Shown in pieces: positions 347 through 13,986 of a stretch of DNA of 64,000 nucleotides. The position numbers were made by a program, and so were the translations under genes. Numbering within the stretch: the first letter of the stretch is position 1; each line of letters opens with the position of its first letter. The notes beneath the pieces are model-generated. The model was not told the origin of the DNA and searched no databases. It saw only the letters and a list, made by a program, of their open reading frames with translations. Source of the DNA: Escherichia coli (lineage in GTDB: Bacteria; Pseudomonadota; Gammaproteobacteria; Enterobacterales; Enterobacteriaceae); the NCBI RefSeq assembly GCF_051903065.1, contig NZ_CP178438.1. The stretch is one strand, 5' to 3'.

Positions 347-3300
347 TTATATCTGCCCGCCTACACCTTTAAACTTCTCAATAAACGCGACGATCTTCTG
401 GAAAACCGTCTGTTTTTTCGTCTTATATTGCGGATTTAACGGACTGAGTTTTGGCAATGTCTCGTTTAATTCCGTGCCATTTTCGGTTGCGTATTCGCGT
501 TTTAAAGACGTGCGAATATAGCGTTTCGCCGCCTCTTCATTGAGATTTTCTTCTTTGATCAATGCTGCTGCTTCACGTTGCTGTTCGCGTTGAGCAAAGG
601 TAAAAAACGCGTCAATGATGCTGGCTTTATCCGGCAAATCATCCAGGTTCGTTTGCTGAATAAAATCGACCACCAATCCTTCTTTGGCACGGTTCCCAAG
701 GCTTGAACGAATTAAGCGTTTGACCTCTTCGGTCATTTCGCCCTTACCTTTGTTTTGTCTGTTGTGTTCGAAAATCAGTCCAAGGATATAATCCAGGTTT
801 ATTTCCTGAGACTTCAGCAAATCGACCTCAAAAACCACGTCATCCCAGTCGGTGGTTGATTTTTCTTTTTTGTCAGCTTCTTTCTCACGGCGCTGCCAGT
901 CACGAATATCGTTATAGGCTGAACGGTAATCCTGAATCTTGCGATCAGCAGGGAGACGAATCGTTTGTAATTCAGCGAACTTTTCATCATCCACATAATG
1001 TTCTGCTTTGAATTTTTCTACCGCAACAGGATCGCTAAGATCGATTTGTTGCAGGGCTTTCAGCATGGCAAATTCATCATAGTTTTGCAGGATGTTCTCG
1101 GCACGCAGGTATTCACCAAACAGTTTTACGAAGTCTTTCTTCTCTTTTTCACTTTCAATATTGGCAGGGTCAGGGAACCGTTGTTCCAGTTCTGAAACTA
1201 CTGCCATAAAGCCGCGTTTAGCTTCACCAGTGGCAGCATCAGTAAAGCCTTCCATATACTCTGCATAACTCTTTTCTAACACCACATTTTTGGTATTTTT
1301 ATCACCAAACAGCGTTATGGCATCAATGGTTGAGCGTTCCAGATCCCGGAAAGTGACGATGTTACCGAAGGTTTTAGTGGCGTTATAAATGCGGTTGGTG
1401 CGGGAAAATGCCTGCATCAGGCCGTGAAAACGCAAGTTTTTATCGACGAATAGCGTGTTCAATGTTGGAGCATCGAAGCCGGTTAAAAACATCCCCACGA
1501 CAATTAACAGATCGATATCTTGATTTTTAACCCGTTGGGCTAAATCACGATAGTAGTTCTGAAAACCGTTACTGTCGGTGCTGAAGTTAGTTTTAAAATA
1601 GCTGTTATACTCACGAATTGCAGCGTCAAGAAACTCTTTAGCACTGCTGTCCATTGCGCTGGTATCAAAAGTTTCATCGGAAATTTCACCAATGGCATTT
1701 TGCTCTTCATTGGCGGCAAAGGAGAAGATTGTCGCAACACGCAGCGGTTTATAAGTAGCCGATTTATTAGCTGCTTCCTCTTGTAACCGTTTAAACGTAG
1801 CGTAATAGGCTTTCGCGGCATCCACGCTACTCACTGCCAGCATGGCATTAAAGCCTTTGGAACTTGGGAAAGTACGGTGGGTCTTCTGGCGGAAGTTATT
1901 CAGAATATATTGCGTAATTTCCTGTATACGCATGGGATGAAGAAACGCCTGCTGATTTTCAGCCGCACTCAGTTTTTTCTCGTCGGTTTCTGTCTCTAAA
2001 GACTTAAACTGTGGCCGCACATCGTTGTAGTCCACCTTGAATTTGAGCACTTTTTCATCACGAATCGCATCGGTAATCACATATGAATGCAATTCACGAC
2101 CAAATACGCTGGCGGTCGTTTCTGAGCCTAAAGCGTTTTCCGGGAAAATAGGGGTACCGGTAAAACCAAACTGATAATAGCGTTTGAATTTCTTCTTCAG
2201 ATTTTTCTGCGCTTCTCCAAACTGGCTGCGGTGACATTCATCAAATATAAACACCACTTGCTGATTGTATACAGGCAGGTCGCTTTCTGCTTTCATCAGG
2301 TTATTAAGTTTCTGAATAGTGGTGACGATAATTTTGTTATCGTCCTTATCCAGATTTCGTTTAAGACCTGCTGTATTTTCCGAGCCGTTAACACTATCTG
2401 GCGAAAAACGCTGATATTCCTTCATGGTCTGGTAATCGAGGTCTTTCCTGTCGACCACAAAGAAGACTTTATCAATAAAGTCCAGTTCTGTTGCCAGACG
2501 TGCGGCTTTAAAGCTGGTCAGGGTTTTACCAGAACCGGTTGTGTGCCAGATAAAGCCACCGCTTTCGGGGGTAGACCAGTTTTTCGCTTTATAGGAGCTG
2601 TTGATTTTCCATAAGATACGCTCAGTGGCGGCAATCTGGTACGGTCGCATCACTAGTAGCGTTTGGCTAATATCGAACACGCTGTAGTTCACTAAGACAT
2701 TAAGCAGAGTATGTTTCTGGAAAAAGGTAGCGGTAAAGTCTTTGAGGTCTTTAATCAGCGTGTTGTCTGATTTCGCCCAATTCATGGTGAAATCAAAACT
2801 GTTTTTATCGCGCTTTGTGGTGTTGGCAAAATAACGGGTATCGGTGCCGTTAGAAATGACAAACAGTTGCAGATACTTAAACAGGGAATTTTCGCTGTTA
2901 AAACTCTCTTTACTGTAACGATGTATTTGGTTGAAAGCCTCACGAATCGCCACGCCGCGCTTTTTCAGTTCGATTTGTACCAGTGGTAAGCCATTAACCA
3001 GGATCGTGACGTCATAACGGTTAGCATGAGAACCCGCCTGTTCAAACTGCTGGATAATCTGCACCTTATTGCGCATGAGATTCTTTTTATCTATCAGATA
3101 GATATTTTCAAGACGCCCGTCATCAAAAATAAAGTCGCAGATATAGTCGATATGAATTTTACGGGTTTTATCCAGGATGCCATCGCTGGGGTTGTCCAGA
3201 TACTGCTCCGTGAAACGCCGCCACTCGCTGTCATTAAACACCACACCATTGAGGTTCTGAAGCTGTTCCCGAACATTGGACAGCATCGCCGACTGTGATT

Positions 3301-3463
3301 TTACCGAAATAAATTCATAGCCCTGATTCCGCAGGTCCTGAATCAGTTCCCGTTCCAGGTCCGATTCGCTCTGGTAGCTGTCGCCTGTTTGCTCAGCTTT
3401 GATGTACTTATCAAGGACGATAAAGTTATTGGATTCAGCAATGGTGTGTGTTTGATGAGTCAT
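347..3463 (-). CDS. hsdR: Type I restriction enzyme R subunit (HsdR), type IC / EcoR124I-like, 1038 aa
   Basis: ORF-track protein starts [14 protein letters not shown] and has the same length (1038 aa) as EcoR124I HsdR as I recall it; DEAD-box helicase motifs (TGSGKT, DECH) present. Confidence 0.9.
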
Positions 3464-3584: not shown

Positions 3585-4865
3585 TTAGTTACTGATAGTT
3601 TCAGGTTTGGGAAAACTGAACAGTAAATCACGATAGTACTCGTATTGTTTCTGGCGCAACTCGATTTCACGCGGGAGGCCTTCGGTGATGGAGTTTGTCA
3701 GAGTGTCGAATTTATCGAGTATTGCGACGATACGAGCTTGTTCCTTAAGTGATTTTTCGTGATCTTTAGGATATGGAACCGGAATCATAATTTTTGAAAA
3801 ACCATTAATGAGTAGTGTATTAACTTTTGTTCTGGCTACATACTTTGCTTTTTCAGAAATAAACGAATCGGTTTGCATGTAATAGGAAATAAATTTTGGA
3901 TTCAAAGAATGTCGAAAAGCATAACAGTGATCATGAATAGCGATATCGTCATCCCCAAGCCATGCCACTGCTTTACCAACGTCTTCTACAGTCTCCCCCA
4001 CGTCAGTTATCACGACATCTCCATGTTTGGCATAGCGTAATGACGCTGCCATATCAGCTCTAACCTGTGATAACGAATGAGTTGTGTAAACACCATATCG
4101 TGTATATATCTCACCATAATGGATTACACTGATACCACCATCTTCTACATAATCTGCTTTAGTAAAACGTTTTCCACGAATAAACTCACCAATTTCCCCC
4201 AAAGTCTTCCACTCAACCTCACCCTCTTTAAAACTCAACAACTGGTCGCGATAGTAGTTGTACTGTTTTTTACGCATGGTAAGCTCTGCTGTAAGCTCTG
4301 CTGTAAGCTCAGTAAATTTATCCAGAATCCGAACGATTTCAGACTGGATGGCAAGGGATTTTTCCGGATTGCCCGGGCAGGGGATGGGGATGAGTAGTTT
4401 TGACATCAATGCATTTGAGCTTAGATTCGGCTGTGCTCCGCCCCCTGCAAGGATATAAATAGTCTCTGTATTTAACAATAAAAAATGGTATAAATAATTA
4501 TTGTTTAGAATATTTTCTTTGGGTATAAATTTCCCAACACGTTGGTTAAGATAACATTTTATTCCTTTTTTATAAATTCCCACTTTTCCTGTAGTGGCAC
4601 CTGACATTGCAATCAATATATTTCCCATAGATACCTCAAAGGAGGATAAATCTTCCTTGTAATCATTTAGTGAAAAGTATTTCACCTCATCTAAGTCAAC
4701 ATTAAACCCATCTATATTTGTGATTCTAACTATCGGTAACCCAGTTTCTTTAAATAAGCTGCTTTTAAATGCAAATCCATTTTTAAAATCACAAACATCC
4801 TTCAGGGTTTTCCACTCAACCTCAACCCCATCCAGCAATTTTTCCAGATAACTCAACTCGCTCAT
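3585..4865 (-). CDS. hsdS: Type I R-M specificity subunit (HsdS), type IC, 426 aa, with central TAEL repeat
   Basis: Conserved type IC central and C-terminal regions ([49 protein letters not shown]); start ATG overlaps the hsdM stop (ATGA), indicating translational coupling. Confidence 0.9.
4279..4311 (-). repeat. 12-bp tandem repeat in hsdS encoding (TAEL)2 plus a partial copy; spacer-length determinant of type IC HsdS
   Basis: Plus strand GTAAGCTCTGCT x2 then GTAAGCTCA; the minus strand reads ACT GAG CTT ACA GCA GAG CTT ACA GCA GAG CTT, i.e. [11 protein letters not shown]. Confidence 0.85.
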
Positions 4866-6416
4866 TTCTGCACCCCGCAGCCTTCAATTTCAGCCACAAT
4901 CGCATCAATATCTTTGCGCAACTGGTCGATTTTGCTGACCGTGGTTTTCAGCTCAGCATTCAGCTCACCGATATCGATAATTTCGCGAGTATCTTTCGCT
5001 TCAACATAGCTGCTCACCGACAGGTTATAGTCATTCGCTACAACGGCTTCAAACGCGACAGATTTCGCCAGATGAGCAACATCTTCCTTGCTGGCAAATA
5101 CCTGCATAATCTGTTCGATATGGGCATCGGTCAGGATATTGTTGTTGGTCTCTTTTTTGAACAGTTCGCTGGCGTCAATAAACTGAACTTTGGTATCGGT
5201 TTTATGTTTAGACAGCACCAGAATATTGACGGCAATAGTGGTGCCAAAGAACAGGTTCGGTGCCAGTGAAATCACGGTTTCGACATAGTTATTATCGACC
5301 AGATACTGACGGATTTTCTGCTCCGCGCCGCCACGGTAAAAAATACCCGGGAAGCAAACAATCGCAGCGCGACCTTTGGCCGAAAGATAGTTCAGCGCAT
5401 GTAGTACAAAGGCGAAGTCAGCTTTGGATTTGGGGGCCAGGACGCCAGCCGGGGCAAAACGTTCATCGTTAATCAGCGTCGGGTCATCGCTGCCAATCCA
5501 TTTCACCGAATACGGCGGGTTAGAAACGATGGCATCAAACGGTTTTTCATCTCTGAAGTGCGGCTCAGTCAGTGTATTGCCCAACTTGATATCAAACTTG
5601 TCGTAGTTGATGTTGTGCAAAAACATGTTCATACGCGCCAGGTTATAGGTCGTATGGTTGATCTCCTGACCAAAAAAGCCTTCTTCGATGATATGGTCAT
5701 CAAACTGCTTTTTCGCCTGCAACAACAGCGAACCGGAACCTGCGGCCGGGTCGTAGATTTTGTTAACGTGGGTCTGCCCGTGCATAGCCAGTTGTGCAAT
5801 CAGCTTAGAGACGTGCTGCGGTGTAAAGAACTCGCCGCCTGACTTACCAGCATTCGCGGCATAGTTAGAAATCAGGAACTCATAGGCATCGCCGAACAGG
5901 TCAATCTGATGTTCGTTAAAGTCGCCAAGCTTTAACCCTTCAACCCCTTTCAGAACCGCAGCCAGGCGGGCATTTTTATCCTTAACGGTGTTACCCAGGC
6001 GGTTACTGGTGGTATCGAAATCAGCAAACAAACCTTTGATGTCAGCTTCTGAAGGGTAACCGTAAGCAGAACTTTCGATAGCAACGAAGATGCTGTTTAA
6101 ATCTGCATTCAGTCTGTCATTGGTATTTGCTTTCGCAGCTACGTTGCAGAAAAGCTGACTTGGGTAGATGAAGTAGCCTTTGGTTTTGATGGCATCGTCT
6201 TTAATGTCATCAGTTATTACGCTGTCATCCAGTTTCGCATAACAGATACTGTCATCACCGGCTTCAATATAGCTGGAAAAATTTTCGCTGATAAAACGGT
6301 AGAAAAGCGCGCCCAGAACGTATTGCTTAAAGTCCCATCCATCGACCGAACCTCTGACATCGTTAGCAATTTGCCAGATCTGGCGATGAAGCTCCGCGCT
6401 GCTGAAGACTGGTCAT
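4862..6416 (-). pseudogene. hsdM: Type IC R-M methyltransferase subunit (HsdM) with an N-terminal frameshift (apparent 2-bp deletion in a CGCGCG run at about codon 8)
   Basis: ATG at 6416 with an AAGGA ribosome-binding site reads [17 protein letters not shown] then stop. The frame encoding the conserved body ([16 protein letters not shown]...) has an in-frame TGA at 6413-6415 and no ATG/GTG/TTG start until the TTG at 6031, which is why the ORF track shows only 389 aa. Confidence 0.7.
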
Positions 6417-7914: not shown

Positions 7915-9969
7915 ATGGTTCAGGATTCATCAGCATTAGCCCCCTTCTTTCGTGCTCAAATTGAAAAAAATAATCAATACAATTCAGTTTGGGGCAAACA
8001 CTACCGCCAGCTTGTAGAACAGATTCAGGCCGAAAAACCAAACTTTTCTGAAGCCACGATTCGGCAGGTATGGTATGAACGTGACAATGGTGTCTCCAGC
8101 CTGATGCAAGGAGGGATGTCATTGGTTGAATTTGAAAATGCACAAAAAGACCTTCTAACGCTCACCCGTCAGATAGCAGAAGAGTGTACACAAGAAAATT
8201 ATAATCGGGTCATTGAACGCCTTATCAAACTTAAAGCGGACGGAGTATTAAATAAGGTATATAGGGCTCTTTGTAATCGTGCTTTTGCAGCAATATACCC
8301 ATCAAAAATTAGCAGTGTCGTGAATGTTAATAATTTTTTTAGTTGCTACAATTATTGCAACAACCATTTCCAGCTAGGTCTTTCCGGAGAACGGGAGTGG
8401 CTGGCTCGCAATGTTGATCTTAAAGAAACGCTAAATCGTGCGCTGGGTGATGATATCGACCCTATTGAGCTGAATATGTCACTTTGGCATCTCTATGCGT
8501 ATGAAATTCAGGATAAAAATGCTATCGGTTTAGTTGGAAGCGAAAGTGCTTTACAAGAAAATGAGCAAGAAGATGATGTTATAAGTTCGCCATTGCCTAA
8601 AAACACAATTCTCTATGGCCCGCCAGGTACAGGTAAAACATATCGTACTATTGAGCTTGCTGTACAAATTTGTGATCCGATCGCTTACTCCCTGCAGGAG
8701 GGTAAGGATGAGAGTGAAAAACGTCGCGAGTTGAAAAAGATTTATGATCAGCTTATCAAAGAAAATCGAGTGCGTTTTATCACCTTTCATCAGAGCTTTG
8801 GTTATGAAGAGTTTATTGAAGGTTTAAGAGCTGAGACTACTGATGACGGTAATGTAAAATACGAAATAAAGGCAGGTATTTTTAAGCAGATATGCGAGGA
8901 TGCCGCCTTTGGTCATGCTGGTGCGCAGGAAATGTTAGATAGCGCACTTACTCGCCTACAAGAACGTTTATCTGAAGGTGAAAATATCACGCTGGAAACA
9001 CAACAGGGTAAGGCCTTCCAGCTGACGTATAAAAGTCAAACCAACTTTGGAATTTTCCCGTCACAATCGAAAAAAGAGGATTTAGGACAGGGTTACAATG
9101 CCTATTTGAAGGATATTCGGCAAGTTTATCAGGATCCACGAGCAAAAGTACATAATCCATCTTATGTACGCAGTATCCTTAACTATTTAATTAATCAACG
9201 TTATCTGCCTCTGAATACTCAGAGCGTAGCTTCAGAAAAAAAGGAAAACTATGTTCTCATTATTGATGAAATAAATCGGGGTAATATTTCAAAAATTTTC
9301 GGTGAACTAATTACCCTTATTGAGCCATCTAAACGGGCTGGTGAGCCAGAATCGCTTAGCGTATTGCTGCCATACTCTTCCACTCCATTTAGTGTGCCGA
9401 ATAACCTTTATTTAATTGGTACCATGAACACTGCTGATCATTCGCTTACTGCACTTGATACTGCACTACGTCGCAGATTTGATTTTGAAGCGATGCTGCC
9501 AGATATTACTGTTCTGAAAGATACTGTCATTAAAGGTATTGATCTGCCTCGTCTATTGCAGACGCTTAACGATCGCATCCAGGTTTTATACGATAGAGAA
9601 CATATGCTGGGGCATGCTTTTTTTATCCCTGTTGTGCAGGCAAAAGAAGACGAAGCTCTGGCATTTGAAAGATTCAAACGGATTATGCGAAATAAGATAC
9701 TACCATTGCTGGAAGAATATTTTTACAATGACTGGCAAAAAATTCGCATGGTACTGGCTGATAACCAAAAAGAGGAAGCACCAGATCTTCAATTTGTACG
9801 TGAGGTGAAATACCAGAAAAAGTATGCCGATCTCTTTGGTGATAACGGAACAGATGACTTGGGAACCAGTTTTCACCTGGCAGCAGAGGATGACAACGTT
9901 TGGGACAATCCAATCGCCTGGCAGCAAATTTATGCACCTCAAAAAGAAAAACGCAGGAGTGCGGAATGA
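7915..9969 (+). CDS. McrB-family AAA+ GTPase (type IV restriction-like), 684 aa, with a non-canonical N-terminal domain of about 230 aa
   Basis: Motifs ILYGPPGTGKTY, FHQSFGYEEFIEG, IIDEINRGNISKIFGEL and GTMNTADHSLTALDTALRRRF parallel the EcoKI McrB GTPase motifs; residues 1-230 do not resemble the EcoKI McrB N-terminal 5mC reader as I recall it. Confidence 0.8.
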   Translation: MVQDSSALAPFFRAQIEKNNQYNSVWGKHYRQLVEQIQAEKPNFSEATIRQVWYERDNGVSSLMQGGMSLVEFENAQKDLLTLTRQIAEECTQENYNRVIERLIKLKADGVLNKVYRALCNRAFAAIYPSKISSVVNVNNFFSCYNYCNNHFQLGLSGEREWLARNVDLKETLNRALGDDIDPIELNMSLWHLYAYEIQDKNAIGLVGSESALQENEQEDDVISSPLPKNTILYGPPGTGKTYRTIELAVQICDPIAYSLQEGKDESEKRRELKKIYDQLIKENRVRFITFHQSFGYEEFIEGLRAETTDDGNVKYEIKAGIFKQICEDAAFGHAGAQEMLDSALTRLQERLSEGENITLETQQGKAFQLTYKSQTNFGIFPSQSKKEDLGQGYNAYLKDIRQVYQDPRAKVHNPSYVRSILNYLINQRYLPLNTQSVASEKKENYVLIIDEINRGNISKIFGELITLIEPSKRAGEPESLSVLLPYSSTPFSVPNNLYLIGTMNTADHSLTALDTALRRRFDFEAMLPDITVLKDTVIKGIDLPRLLQTLNDRIQVLYDREHMLGHAFFIPVVQAKEDEALAFERFKRIMRNKILPLLEEYFYNDWQKIRMVLADNQKEEAPDLQFVREVKYQKKYADLFGDNGTDDLGTSFHLAAEDDNVWDNPIAWQQIYAPQKEKRRSAE

Positions 9970-11276
9970 AATCTTCCAGTCATTTCACTGTGTTCGAATA
10001 CGGGCATTTAGTGAGTGAGGAAGGTGATGCCCGTATAAATAATGCGGTAGTGCTACCTGCAGACCTATTTAAATGGCTTGAGCTGCGCTGTCTGAAAGAC
10101 GATGCTGATAATACTCATCGTTTGCTCACCCTTAGCAGCCGGAATGGAGTAAAAACGCTGCAGGTAAAAAACTATGCAGGAGTAATCTCACTGCCAGGGG
10201 GGCGATTTCTCGAAATCCTGCCTAAAACAGGTCAGGATAATGAGGATACTGTTCGTCAACAAATACTGATGATGTTACGTACGTTAAAATCATTTCGTCA
10301 TATTGCCTCCTCTGAATCTGGCGTCAAAATATCTAAAATGCCTCTGATGGACATCTTTATTCAACAATTTATAGAGAGCGTGCGTAAGATTGTGCAGAGA
10401 GGGTTAAAACGTGACTATTTACGTCAGGAAGATAATCTTCCATGGATAAAAGGAAGATTACGGATCTCTGCACAATTAAGCAAAAACTGTATTAGGCGGG
10501 ATCTTTTTCAGGTGGAGTATGACGAGTACAGCGTCAATCGTCTGGAAAACCGGATACTCAAAACTGCAATCAATAAGATTAGTCGCCAGACCAGTAATCC
10601 ACAATTATTACAGCAGATAACACAGCTGCAGTTTCACTTTGAAAATATCACGTCAGTTCATGATGCTTATATAGCTTTCGAGCAGTTACACTTTGATAGA
10701 CACATGCATCACTATGAGCAAGCATTAGCGTGGGCGAAGATGATTTTATTGGGCGATTCTCCACACTGTATGTATGGGGATGTTAATGCTTTTTCACTGC
10801 TTTTCCCGATGGAGGCTGTTTTTGAATCTTTTGTGACGACATGGATGCGTTATCGTTATTATGATAAATGGCGAGTGGACGCACAGGTAAGTTCAAAAAA
10901 TCTGATTAGTTATAACGGTAAAGCTTTATTTAAGCTGCGGCCTGATATTTGTTTACGGCCTCGTAAAAGTACTACTGGTTCAGTTATTACCTGTGATATT
11001 AAATGGAAGATAGTAAATGGCAGAAAGGACAGTCTTGAACAATCTCAAGCCGATCTCTACCAAATGCTTGCCTATGGATTGAATTACCAGGAGGGGGAAG
11101 GTGATATGATTTTGATATACCCCTATCATAACGGATTTAATCAGCCATCTCCTCATCCTTATGAATTTAGCCATCAGAAGGAAAATAGGTTACGTTTATG
11201 GGTTGTACCTTTCTTTATTGGCGAGAGTTTACAGACATCAGAGTTGCATTTTCCTAGTGGGGCTGAATTTATTTAG
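9966..11276 (+). CDS. McrC-like PD-(D/E)xK nuclease partner, about 436 aa, translationally coupled to the McrB-like gene
   Basis: ATG overlaps the McrB-like stop (ATGA at 9966-9969); C-terminal PDICLRP...ITCDIKWK fits a PD..D-x-K nuclease motif. The ORF-track start at 9900 lies inside the upstream gene and is probably too far 5'. Confidence 0.75.
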   Translation: MKSSSHFTVFEYGHLVSEEGDARINNAVVLPADLFKWLELRCLKDDADNTHRLLTLSSRNGVKTLQVKNYAGVISLPGGRFLEILPKTGQDNEDTVRQQILMMLRTLKSFRHIASSESGVKISKMPLMDIFIQQFIESVRKIVQRGLKRDYLRQEDNLPWIKGRLRISAQLSKNCIRRDLFQVEYDEYSVNRLENRILKTAINKISRQTSNPQLLQQITQLQFHFENITSVHDAYIAFEQLHFDRHMHHYEQALAWAKMILLGDSPHCMYGDVNAFSLLFPMEAVFESFVTTWMRYRYYDKWRVDAQVSSKNLISYNGKALFKLRPDICLRPRKSTTGSVITCDIKWKIVNGRKDSLEQSQADLYQMLAYGLNYQEGEGDMILIYPYHNGFNQPSPHPYEFSHQKENRLRLWVVPFFIGESLQTSELHFPSGAEFI

Positions 11277-11338
11277 TATTTGTAGGCTATCTCTTTATAC
11301 AATTTATTTGTCTATTTGTATGCACAAGATAGCCTACC

Positions 11339-12211
11339 TCACCCCCTAAAAACCTCTTTCCGATGCCACTCCACAAACCCCTCAAAAGGGTAATTTTTAC
11401 GCACCTGTGGCAACGCAATAGTTTTCCCGTCAAAATCCCAGAATAATCTCTCAACGATCCCTCCGCCGTTTACCGCATCCGAGACCAGTATCCGCATATT
11501 TTCATCCAGGCCAATCGATCCTTTATCAAAGGCTTTATGGTGTATTGCGCAAAGTGCCAGACCATTGGGGATTTCACAAGGGCCGCCGTGCTGTTTCCAT
11601 TTTATATGCGCCGCTTCCAGCGCGACGGTGGTGTCGTCGTGGCGCATATTAAAGCCACATATCGCGCACTGGTATTTATAAGCGCGTAATACATTTTTGC
11701 GAAATAACGGGTCGCGCTGTTTACGGATTTGCTGGAGATCAAAACCCAGCTCGTCAGCAATTTCTTCCTGAATACTCTCGGTGAAGTGCGCTTCGAGTAT
11801 CTGTTGCGCCAGAGTATTGATGAGTTTTTTATTGCCGGTTACCAGGGCGTAGTGCTGTTCATCGAAACCGCCTGCAACGTGGTATTCGTTCAGTTCCTTC
11901 ACTGGCGGTTGTCGGCTGCTCCCTGCTGTTGAGCAACGCTCGGCATTGTGTAATTGCCAGAATCCGTCGCCTTGTAATCGCCAGAACGGCATATCAGGTC
12001 GGTACTGTGAACGCTGTGGCCCAAAACGTTCCAGTAAACTGTGCAGAGGTTCGTAGATTTCCGAGCCATAATCGAAAAGGCGCGGATGTCCATGCAGGTA
12101 TCCCGCTAATACGTATAGCAATAACAATGGCTTATGCGGCGCGCGCTGTTCACCCTTATGCCAGATTTTTATATTGGCAATTGCCTGCTGTAGCGATTTA
12201 CTGGAAGCCAT
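11339..12211 (-). CDS. HNH-family nuclease (C-terminal CAICG...HIKW...CAIHH motif) with an uncharacterised N-terminal domain; candidate modification-dependent restriction enzyme
   Basis: Cys/His HNH motifs in the C-terminal third; start chosen at ATG 12211 (AGGGA ribosome-binding site, protein begins MASSKSL); the ORF track extends to a TTG at 12268. Confidence 0.65.
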   Translation of the reverse strand: MASSKSLQQAIANIKIWHKGEQRAPHKPLLLLYVLAGYLHGHPRLFDYGSEIYEPLHSLLERFGPQRSQYRPDMPFWRLQGDGFWQLHNAERCSTAGSSRQPPVKELNEYHVAGGFDEQHYALVTGNKKLINTLAQQILEAHFTESIQEEIADELGFDLQQIRKQRDPLFRKNVLRAYKYQCAICGFNMRHDDTTVALEAAHIKWKQHGGPCEIPNGLALCAIHHKAFDKGSIGLDENMRILVSDAVNGGGIVERLFWDFDGKTIALPQVRKNYPFEGFVEWHRKEVFRG

Positions 12212-12347
12212 TGATATCCCTGGCAGTGAAATAATTGCGATCATGCTCGCAAATTTTCTGCTGTTCAAGCCTGCAAGTGAAGATATATTACTTTGATCTC
12301 ATTTGTTTTTTTGCTGCTTGTTCTGAGAACGTATAAGGACATTCTCT

Positions 12348-12998
12348 ATGAATAAACTCCCCGATCATCTTCCGCGGCGGTATATTATCGAAGCTATTCA
12401 TTTATGGGATGCGGGAGAAACTCATCAGTTCCAGCCTGCACGGTTGTATGAGATTGAATATCATGGCCGACGTTACCCCTCGAAGGCGATTGCTGGCATC
12501 GCAGCGACATTGATGACGGGGACGCAATTTACCCCTGCGGATTTCACCGGCGGAATAAAATCTAAATGCGTCAAGCTACTTATAGATCAGGGATTTCATA
12601 TTCATCAGGATAAAGCCGCTGCGGCTCCCATAGCCGATGTTCTGTTCCCGGATGAGTTGCCGTCGCAGGGGACCTACGTTGAAGGTGCGGCGATAAAGGT
12701 GACGGTAAACAGCTATGAACGCGATAAAAACGCTCGCGAGAAAGCAGTCGAATATCACGGATGCCAGTGCAACGTATGCGGCGTTGATCTGGTGAAGATC
12801 TATGGCGATATCGCTGAGGGCTTTATCCATATGCATCACCTGGTGCCGCTTTCAGCCATTAAAGAGGATTACCTGCTGGATCCAGTTAATGATTTACTTC
12901 CTGTGTGCCCTAATTGCCATGCGATGTTGCACCGACGCAAACCACCGTTTACGCCGGAGGAGTTAAAAGCGTTGATGGATGCGAATAAATCAAATTAA
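12348..12998 (+). CDS. HNH nuclease, 216 aa (C-terminal CQCNVCG...HMHHLVP...CPNCH, McrA-like HNH) with a distinct N-terminal domain
   Basis: HNH zinc-finger-type motif resembling the E. coli McrA C-terminus as recalled; transcribed divergently from the neighbouring HNH gene. Confidence 0.7.
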   Translation: MNKLPDHLPRRYIIEAIHLWDAGETHQFQPARLYEIEYHGRRYPSKAIAGIAATLMTGTQFTPADFTGGIKSKCVKLLIDQGFHIHQDKAAAAPIADVLFPDELPSQGTYVEGAAIKVTVNSYERDKNAREKAVEYHGCQCNVCGVDLVKIYGDIAEGFIHMHHLVPLSAIKEDYLLDPVNDLLPVCPNCHAMLHRRKPPFTPEELKALMDANKSN

Positions 12999-13005
12999 TG
13001 AACGC

Positions 13006-13986
13006 TCACCTTTCGCGCCAAAACTGCAAAATTGCTTCTACAAACTTGTCAGAAATAATCCCCCGACGGGCTGCCGCGCTGAAATGACTGCTTCGCAGTG
13101 CCGTCGTCCAGTTCTCCGGTGACCGGTACGCTGAACCGTAATATCCCGTGCTTAAATCGTCCGGATCTTCATCAGGCGCGTTCGTCAGTCCTCTTTCACC
13201 TTGTTGCTGGAAGTCGACGAAAATAATATTGGCTAAAACATTATTTTGATAATTGCCATAAATAGCTTCATACGCATGAGGGAAATTTTCTTTCCAGTAC
13301 CAGGTGGTATCGCCGCAAAACCAGGGCGCATCAGTAATATTATTAAGCTGAGAATGGTATTGTTTTAGATCCCTACGAAAGGCTTCAACCATATGATTAA
13401 AGTGTTGAGGGTGTGACGCGTAGTCACTGGTCATTAAGTCAAATTCGCCTTGCATCCAGCATACGCCGAGGAATTTGTTCTGCGGATTTTTTGCCAATGC
13501 GGCTCGCGTTCTGCTGACTAAATCCTGGTATAGCGGAGTATCCGTTCCCCAACGACAAGCATCATGGCTGGCTCCGTGCCGTTCTGAATATGTCCCCTCG
13601 CTGCCCGCGGTAAAAGCCGATCCGCCACGGCAACATGGAACGATGAGAACCCCTGCGTTATCAGGAATAAAGGGCAGTAATTTCCGTGCAATATGCAGTG
13701 CCTGGCCAATGGTGCCGTACTGTGTTTGATGATTCGTTGCCAGAGGATGGTGATAACCCTGCATATCCTGAACATCGTGTGGGCAGTGAGTCAGTGGAAT
13801 AATGTCGTTAAAGTGACATGACGGGCCTCCGGGATGCGTATGCGCAAATCTCGCTAATTGTTTAATTCTGGGATGAGGCGCATCTTCCCTGTCCGGTAAT
13901 GGCAGTCCTTCGCCATACGCCATGGCATTAGACTGACCAGCAACGGTAAGAACATAGTAATAATCGGGCGATATTATTGCGTCCAT
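13006..13986 (-). CDS. nanS: N-acetyl-9-O-acetylneuraminate esterase NanS (YjhS), 326 aa
   Basis: Length and N-terminus (MDAIISPDYYYVLTVAGQSNAMAYGE, SGNH-type) match K-12 NanS; position upstream of nanM-nanC. Confidence 0.85.
   Translation of the reverse strand: MDAIISPDYYYVLTVAGQSNAMAYGEGLPLPDREDAPHPRIKQLARFAHTHPGGPSCHFNDIIPLTHCPHDVQDMQGYHHPLATNHQTQYGTIGQALHIARKLLPFIPDNAGVLIVPCCRGGSAFTAGSEGTYSERHGASHDACRWGTDTPLYQDLVSRTRAALAKNPQNKFLGVCWMQGEFDLMTSDYASHPQHFNHMVEAFRRDLKQYHSQLNNITDAPWFCGDTTWYWKENFPHAYEAIYGNYQNNVLANIIFVDFQQQGERGLTNAPDEDPDDLSTGYYGSAYRSPENWTTALRSSHFSAAARRGIISDKFVEAILQFWRER

Follow-up and report, generated by a model that had tools for sequence, protein, structure and literature searches.

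Two adjacent, divergently transcribed genes in a 64,000-nucleotide stretch of the Escherichia coli chromosome (contig NZ_CP178438.1 of assembly GCF_051903065.1; the whole stretch is called the window below) encode HNH nucleases that we read, with a probability of roughly 0.6, as two co-travelling, stand-alone, modification-dependent enzymes which probably act independently of each other. The larger protein has at its N-terminus a sulfur-binding domain (SBD) and is called SBD-HNH; the smaller carries an N-terminal domain of the type termed 'head' in ScoMcrA and is called head-HNH. An earlier note on this DNA had described a divergent pair of HNH genes and had proposed either two type IV-like restriction enzymes or a two-component system. 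Both genes proved to be intact, and their predicted domains point to stand-alone modification-dependent (type IV/IIM) HNH nucleases with differing N-terminal reader modules, situated in a defence island. The genes and their domains are as follows (aa, amino acids; E, E-value).

11339..12211, minus strand: SBD-HNH gene, 290 aa, 33.3 kDa, ATG at 12211
11504..11668, minus strand: HNH_2 catalytic core, aa 182-236 of the 290-aa protein (Pfam PF13391, E 1.3e-9)
11786..12199, minus strand: SBD, aa 5-142 of the 290-aa protein (phmmer match to the ScoMcrA SBD structure 5zmo)
12212..12347: divergent intergenic region, 136 bp
12348..12998, plus strand: head-HNH gene, 216 aa, 24.2 kDa (from the listing of open reading frames)
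12348..12623, plus strand: ScoMcrA-type head domain, aa 1-92, isoelectric point 8.8
12702..12995, plus strand: EcoKMcrA-like HNH domain, aa 119-216, with a CxxC...CxxC zinc site

Domain architecture of the two nucleases

The minus-strand open reading frame (ORF) spans 11339-12268 and would give 309 aa from a TTG codon; RefSeq places the start instead at the ATG at 12211 (290 aa), and all aligned homologues begin at the Met of this shorter form (the HNH_2 core was scored on the 309-aa translation as residues 201-255, from which 19 residues were subtracted to number it from the ATG). The protein matches NCBIfam NF045808, 'phosphorothioated DNA-binding restriction endonuclease', with 438.9 bits (cutoff 180) over profile positions 2-284 of 284, and RefSeq uses the same label for it in near-identical genomes. 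The SBD aligns with 5zmo at E 2.3e-8 (phmmer, aa 5-142 on 7-144) and retains the pocket motifs HKPLLLL and MPFW, with Met in place of ScoMcrA Y164, the same as in the enzyme of E. coli W. Identity to that enzyme (WP_000199891.1) is 76% over the protein, with all motif residues conserved, including the nuclease residues CAICG...AAHI...CAIHH, and orthologues carry Pfam PF26340 (DNA-SBD_ScoMcrA) together with PF13391. With all sequence-level features of the EcoWI/SprMcrA SBD-HNH family present, the 290-aa protein is a member of that family, and its N-terminus of about 190 residues, which had been called uncharacterised, is the SBD plus linker of the EcoWI/SprMcrA/ScoMcrA family (NF045808, 5zmo, PF26340).

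EcoWI is a Mg2+-dependent dimer that recognises GpsAAC/GpsTTC and cuts at N7/N6; on its own it makes double-strand cuts in vitro, and in vivo it allowed zero transformants with dnd+ plasmids (PMC7461809). Its sequence or accession was not found in the paper or the supplement (PMC7461809). The leuX island of E. coli W encodes a 291-aa protein, WP_000199891.1, that bears the same RefSeq name and has a computed mass of 33.41 kDa against the published 33.4 kDa of EcoWI, and from the strain name and the mass match we infer that this protein is EcoWI. The 290-aa protein resembles it (PMC7461809, PMC9521924) in architecture, length (290 versus 291 aa), HK/PFW and HNH_2 residues, NF045808 membership, location in the leuX-island hotspot, and an upstream palindrome, and differs from it by 24% of its residues and in its neighbours: EcoWI lies beside an integrase and a 5'-nucleotidase gene and has no head-HNH partner, whereas the window copy is divergent with head-HNH and convergent with an McrC-family gene. 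Because of its homology to a biochemically characterised enzyme (PMC7461809), the target class of the larger protein, phosphorothioate (PT) DNA, is already known; with 76% identity to EcoWI, to which it is either an orthologue or a paralogue, the protein is likely to be a PT-DNA-dependent restriction endonuclease with a similar sequence context. Its SBD would dock on foreign DNA at Rp-phosphorothioate linkages, with GpsAAC/GpsTTC as the likeliest context, as in EcoWI, the protein would dimerise, and the C-terminal HNH_2 domain would cut both strands a few bp away, so that incoming dnd+ plasmids or phage DNA would be destroyed and a host without PT modification spared. Such an enzyme is a useful and unsurprising addition, mostly of known biology, and head-HNH is the more interesting of the two; as a 76%-identical natural variant of EcoWI, which is used for PT mapping in EcoWI-seq, it could differ in context or cut distance.

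The 216-aa protein, labelled 'HNH endonuclease' in RefSeq and preceded by a ribosome-binding site (AAGGA, 12335-12339), had no match in the NCBIfam scan and a marginal HNH match in Pfam (E 1.2e-3, aa 141-197). Among PDB sequences, aa 24-87 match residues 29-93 of full-length ScoMcrA (5zmm, E 1e-4) and aa 125-198 match the HNH domain of EcoKMcrA (6ghc, E 2e-3), and PADLOC agrees on this split (PDLC03662 at positions 29-92, plus PDLC03656). Domain annotation of both N-termini, which the earlier note had suggested as a check, thus gave a sulfur-binding domain for the larger protein and a ScoMcrA_N head for the smaller one. The term 'McrA-like' used for the latter holds for its HNH core and fails for its N-terminus: EcoKMcrA (the E. 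coli K-12 e14 McrA; PDB 6GHC; PMC7145662) has a similar HNH domain with a CxxC/CxxC zinc site, but its NEco domain, a reader of 5-methylcytosine and 5-hydroxymethylcytosine, is absent from the 216-aa protein, whose alignment to 6ghc spans aa 125-198 only and which has a ScoMcrA-type head instead. A database search returned 1395 homologues, most of them about 210-220 aa long and carrying PF26345 (Pfam ScoMcrA_N) and PF01844 (HNH). As far as its sequence goes, the protein is a member of this catalogued, experimentally uncharacterised ScoMcrA_N-HNH family and is McrA-like solely in the nuclease domain; in a literature search no work on head-HNH proteins turned up, nor any on their being paired with SBD-HNH genes. 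A small N-terminal reader followed by HNH, with no methyltransferase, is likewise the design of the winged-helix-HNH and PUA/SRA-HNH enzymes (SruGXI, HhiV4I, TagI; PMC11037411, PMC6765204).

The head domain is widespread. Its profile recovered 4285 clusters at E 1e-3 or better from a library of 1.84 billion proteins, the proteins ranging from 93 to 1567 aa, and the Pfam partners counted in 84 multi-domain representatives were HNH (33), HNH_2 (20), EVE (12), NOV_C (7), AAA_5 of the McrB type (6), nSTAND3 (5), DUF3427 (3), MrcB_N (2), SAD_SRA (1) and AspBHI_N (1). A Foldseek search of AFDB50 returned EVE, YDG, DUF3578, DUF3427, NOV_C/DUF3883, McrB and 'EcoKMcrB DNA-binding domain' proteins. The partners are overwhelmingly hallmark modules of type IV (modification-dependent) restriction, and since the head is basic and the sole non-nuclease module of the 216-aa protein, it is predicted to bind DNA or to sense its modification. 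In the AlphaFold2 model (mean predicted local distance difference test score, pLDDT, 84) two domains are joined by a disordered linker, and the basic head, on this flexible linker of about 25 residues, might direct the EcoKMcrA-type HNH domain to another feature of foreign DNA. Over 4000 protein clusters contain the domain, with McrB GTPases, EVE, SRA, DUF3427 and HNH as its fusion partners, and it has been without a function since the ScoMcrA structure of 2018; head-HNH, as the simplest architecture with the head as the only non-catalytic module, is the cleanest object for assigning one.

In an alignment of 35 homologues (37-94% identity), C141, C144, H163, H164, N189, C190, H191 and H195 are invariant and C187 is nearly so; the window allele keeps these residues, so its nuclease and zinc site are intact. 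Pairwise dN/dS (the ratio of nonsynonymous to synonymous substitution rates) is 0.16, and E. coli alleles with 1-8 nucleotide differences in the head segment have 0-2 amino acid changes there versus 3-10 elsewhere in the protein, which shows that head-HNH is under purifying selection and supports a function. One allele that is common in E. coli has C187Y in the near-invariant zinc-binding CPNCH motif (window 12906-12908; seen at L091:5001-5651 in strain 53 and L104:1501-2150 in strain 03_3503), and counts of exact 33-mers gave 942 genomes with the Cys and 944 with the Tyr allele, although these counts take in gene remnants and are confounded by a common 106-bp gene remnant. It is against this background that one has to judge the view that head-HNH is no restriction enzyme, being either a decaying remnant or a nuclease with some other task (for instance in regulation, in repair or in nicking plasmids), in which the head would serve for protein interaction or regulation. 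The absence of an assigned function for the head, the weak Pfam HNH score, the C187Y allele that is as common as Cys where the segment survives, one sampled copy with a C-terminal frameshift, and the heavy erosion of the locus in E. coli all speak for it. We consider it very unlikely, because the window allele has all invariant catalytic and zinc residues, the substitution data above indicate constraint on the gene, the family with intact HNH is large and widespread, the partners of the head are overwhelmingly type IV modules, and a regulatory role at the palindrome described below is excluded by its presence where head-HNH is missing.

The earlier note had also named homing endonucleases and prophage terminase-associated HNH proteins as relatives that would speak against restriction. 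Weak PHROGs matches to 'HNH endonuclease' families were indeed found (best E 2e-8), but they cover the HNH core of about 70 residues only; the genes lie on the chromosome between the McrC-family gene and nanS with no prophage, intron or intein context, the N-termini are the SBD and the ScoMcrA head, and curated NCBIfam and PADLOC models for type IV systems match. An origin of this kind has next to no probability.

Linkage, separation and erosion of the pair

The divergent pair recurs with a gap of 136-180 bp and with differing flanks. In Citrobacter farmeri the cassette has sugar-kinase and cupin genes on one side and a type VI secretion system (T6SS) on the other, and further divergent cassettes occur in Citrobacter sp. 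Cu233 and FP75, in Klebsiella sp. R445 (adjoining Wadjet) and in K. aerogenes. Across E. coli, three Citrobacter species, Klebsiella sp. R445 and K. aerogenes the cassettes are 64-72% identical in head-HNH and about 80% in SBD-HNH, and the flanks of these conserved cassettes are unrelated (T6SS, Wadjet, type I restriction-modification, McrBC). Both genes are also found, 4 kb apart and 57% and 51% identical to the window proteins, in an integrative and conjugative element (ICE) of E. coli and Citrobacter; since this element bears its own diverged pair, a mobile element and not the host alone deploys both nucleases. The ICE (loci L005-L008, e.g., CP010133.1 1768383-1781036) encodes an integrase, TraI_2, ArdC and TraG_N, and its nuclease genes flank the relaxase/ArdC block.

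Either gene is also common on its own. In a metagenome sample, 16 of the 54 SBD genes marked by the upstream palindrome have a divergent head-HNH gene and 38 have no adjacent one; the E. coli W gene taken as EcoWI has no head-HNH within 50 kb. Solitary head-HNH genes were found in K. pneumoniae ATCC 13883, Escherichia sp. ESNIH1, Pseudescherichia, Aeoliella, Sulfurovum, Pantoea and Enterobacter sp. C2, and a search of all six-frame ORFs beside solitary head-HNH genes with an SBD hidden Markov model (HMM), a narrow one built from five close enterobacterial sequences, revealed no hidden divergent SBD gene. The species-level co-occurrence sample for true head-HNH is small, as most of the 80 contig loci matched the HNH half only and have other N-termini. 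In C. portucalensis, Enterobacter MGH24 and Raoultella, the partner position, in tandem behind the SBD-HNH gene, is taken by a gene for an Mrr_N-like winged-helix-HNH protein (its HNH domain is about 53% identical to that of head-HNH), and in K. aerogenes all three HNH genes lie together, with Mrr_N-HNH downstream of SBD-HNH (tandem loci L038:9680-10378, L098:5260-5919, L025 and L045, in C. portucalensis, K. aerogenes, Enterobacter MGH24 and Raoultella). Replacement of the head by Mrr_N is, in its domain composition, an exchange of reader domains of the sort typical for independent type IV enzymes. The pair is a mobile, co-inherited cassette of which each gene persists alone.

An obligate two-component system of the McrBC kind does not fit these solitary copies, and the two-component alternative of the earlier note is disfavoured for the same reason and because EcoWI works by itself both in vitro and in vivo (PMC7461809). 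A looser form of cooperation is suggested by ScoMcrA, the head-SBD-SRA-HNH type IV enzyme of Streptomyces coelicolor (PDB 5ZMM; PMC6224610), in which both N-terminal modules lie on one chain, the head (about residues 1-90) corresponding to the 216-aa protein and the SBD (91-260) to the 290-aa protein. The pair would then be a split ScoMcrA, with head-HNH recruited to, or heterodimerised with, SBD-HNH at PT sites, where it would contribute a second strand cut, a further check on specificity or access to a wider set of PT contexts. The fusion of the two modules in ScoMcrA (PMC6224610), the conservation of the divergent cassette across unrelated flanks, the residence of both genes in one ICE, and the 16 of 54 metagenomic SBD genes with a divergent head-HNH neighbour would all agree with this. 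We nevertheless find it unlikely: the EcoWI homodimer cuts double strands and restricts dnd+ plasmids without help (PMC7461809), the head in the ScoMcrA crystal is flexibly attached and makes no dimer contacts, solitary copies are common (including the 38 of 54 palindrome-marked SBD genes), and conservation is lacking in the half of the intergenic region that adjoins head-HNH.

Independent action of two modification-dependent nucleases is favoured, then, because either gene is often solitary and EcoWI is active alone. Several observations weigh against it. The divergent pair occurs in at least four flanking contexts and three genera, which is more linkage than defence-island clustering predicts, and the shared ICE and the ScoMcrA fusion point in the same direction. 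The head domain stands mostly alongside other readers (EVE, SRA, SBD, McrB-N) in longer proteins, so it may be an accessory and not a specificity module. Copies with C187Y may be decaying or inactive, and at 76% identity the PT sequence context of the larger enzyme could differ from that of EcoWI.

Within E. coli the cassette is frequently broken. Among 5426 complete genomes, 325 have the contiguous, intact pair, 1914 have the SBD-HNH gene and 1246 the head-HNH gene over 80% or more of its length, and 4961 retain the SBD-HNH gene at least as a fragment. Comparison of window positions 11339-12998 with loci L091, L092, L093 and L101-L105 revealed a recurrent deletion breakpoint at about window position 12068; among sampled genomes, strains 53, AMSHJX01, 4621 and S1-IND-01-A have an intact head-HNH gene beside a 150-bp SBD fragment. 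In a genome labelled strain C600 (a human blood isolate from Taiwan), which has the K-12-type order yjhP-yjhQ-topAI-yjhR-ythB-nanS, only a 206-bp fragment of SBD-HNH is left, beside ythB. At the nanS edge of the leuX hotspot the cassette is apparently ancestral, and in most E. coli island turnover has eroded it. An association of C187Y with truncation of SBD-HNH was considered and is not clean (among six sampled genomes in which SBD-HNH is truncated, Tyr occurs in two and Cys with an intact ORF in three).

The palindrome upstream of the SBD-HNH gene

When the intergenic region was aligned with those of three Citrobacter cassettes, the half next to SBD-HNH was conserved and the half next to head-HNH was not, so that nothing points to shared regulation. 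The conserved half contains the following elements.

12235..12252, minus strand: candidate operator, the perfect palindrome TTGCGAG-CATGAT-CGCAA, located 24-41 bp upstream of the ATG of SBD-HNH
12240..12245, minus strand: putative -10 element CATGAT, at the centre of the palindrome, behind a 17-nt spacer
12263..12268, minus strand: putative -35 element TTGAAC, whose TTG was taken for the start codon in the 309-aa ORF, falsely

The 18-bp palindrome TTGCGAGCATNATCGCAA is invariant before the EcoWI-family SBD-HNH genes examined (other copies at L010:16114-16131, L005:11647-11664 and L038:8753-8770). It is unchanged ahead of all SBD-HNH genes that were reached via protein homology (among them E. 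coli W, the 51%-identical ICE copy, Enterobacter and Raoultella), and across independently found loci its CATNAT core is invariant. When metagenomes were scanned for the exact pattern, 54 of the 80 palindromes found lay, correctly oriented, at the 5' end of an ORF for an SBD protein; in a database of this size the remaining 26 may be chance matches. The flanks vary across 47 unique upstream regions, in all of which TTGA stands 10 nt upstream of the palindrome. The layout suggests a putative operator that overlaps a -35/-10 promoter of the SBD-HNH gene; a simple sigma-70 consensus scan with a threshold of 9 of 12 called no promoter, TTGAAC/CATGAT scoring 8 of 12.

Two other roles of the palindrome were considered. 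It was flagged on both strands by a terminator scan, and an RNA hairpin or terminator is the less likely explanation, since an invariant TTGA lies 17 nt upstream of CATNAT and this spacing implies that the palindrome spans a -10 element and is not inside the transcript. Control by head-HNH was rejected, as the palindrome is present without head-HNH in E. coli W and at the 38 metagenomic loci mentioned above. The SBD has been classed as a winged helix-turn-helix domain by Aravind's group (PMC10853773), and the dimeric SBD protein might regulate its own gene, a guess that can be tested. In its most ambitious form the split-ScoMcrA idea would include this control: the two proteins would be functionally coupled, the head would serve, alongside the sulfur reader, as a second sensor (of a base or backbone modification of DNA) or as a recruiter of the partner, and SBD-HNH would regulate itself through the TTGCGAG-CATNAT-CGCAA operator. 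We regard this combination as quite unlikely; if true, it would provide the first function for a domain present in thousands of type IV enzymes and the first transcriptional self-control in a PT-dependent restriction enzyme.

Genomic setting and neighbouring genes

By megablast, positions 11200-13050 of the window are 100% identical in strain 23CRST027, and 98%-identical DNA is present in many other complete genomes. The leuX tRNA gene is a well-known hotspot of integration and defence, and the HNH pair lies at the nanS edge of the leuX/nanS defence island, between an McrC-family gene and nanS. The annotated order in strain BE2-5, which is also that of 23CRST027, is yjgR, ahr, tRNA-Leu (leuX), HsdR/S/M, a DUF4942 gene, McrB-family, McrC-family, 'phosphorothioated DNA-binding restriction endonuclease', 'HNH endonuclease', nanS, nanM, nanC and the fim operon. 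The nearest neighbours on the side of SBD-HNH are the following, named after RefSeq and sub-threshold NCBIfam matches.

7915-9969, plus strand: McrB-family GTPase
9966-11276, plus strand: McrC-family nuclease

These two genes (684 and 436 aa), which have 4 bp in common, are convergent with the SBD-HNH gene. Against the equivalog models the McrB-like protein scores 116.8 (EcoKMcrB cutoff 637) and the McrC-like protein 106.2 (McrC cutoff 338), and the N-terminal 200 aa or so of the McrB-like protein have no match at all.

No dnd or ssp gene was found in 50 kb of the colinear annotated region of 23CRST027, nor in the BE2-5 island. The EcoWI paper's own neighbourhood analysis dealt with dnd genes only (PMC7461809). 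No dedicated methyltransferase adjoins the HNH pair, the hsdM of the island belonging to the type I system; the lack of such a partner is expected of modification-dependent enzymes, following the logic of PMC11037411. In that type I system hsdR (347-3463) and hsdS (3585-4865) look intact and hsdM (4862-6400) appears to be disrupted (the longest ORF has 389 aa and an internal TTG start, and the same region, of identical DNA, is annotated as 'frameshifted' in 23CRST027), so that the system may be non-functional. At the other end, a 29-aa ORF that RefSeq annotates as a 'hypothetical protein' begins at the stop codon of head-HNH (window 12998-13087 region; L001:15799-15888), and at the equivalent spot in the K-12-type genome labelled C600 the small protein YthB is annotated.

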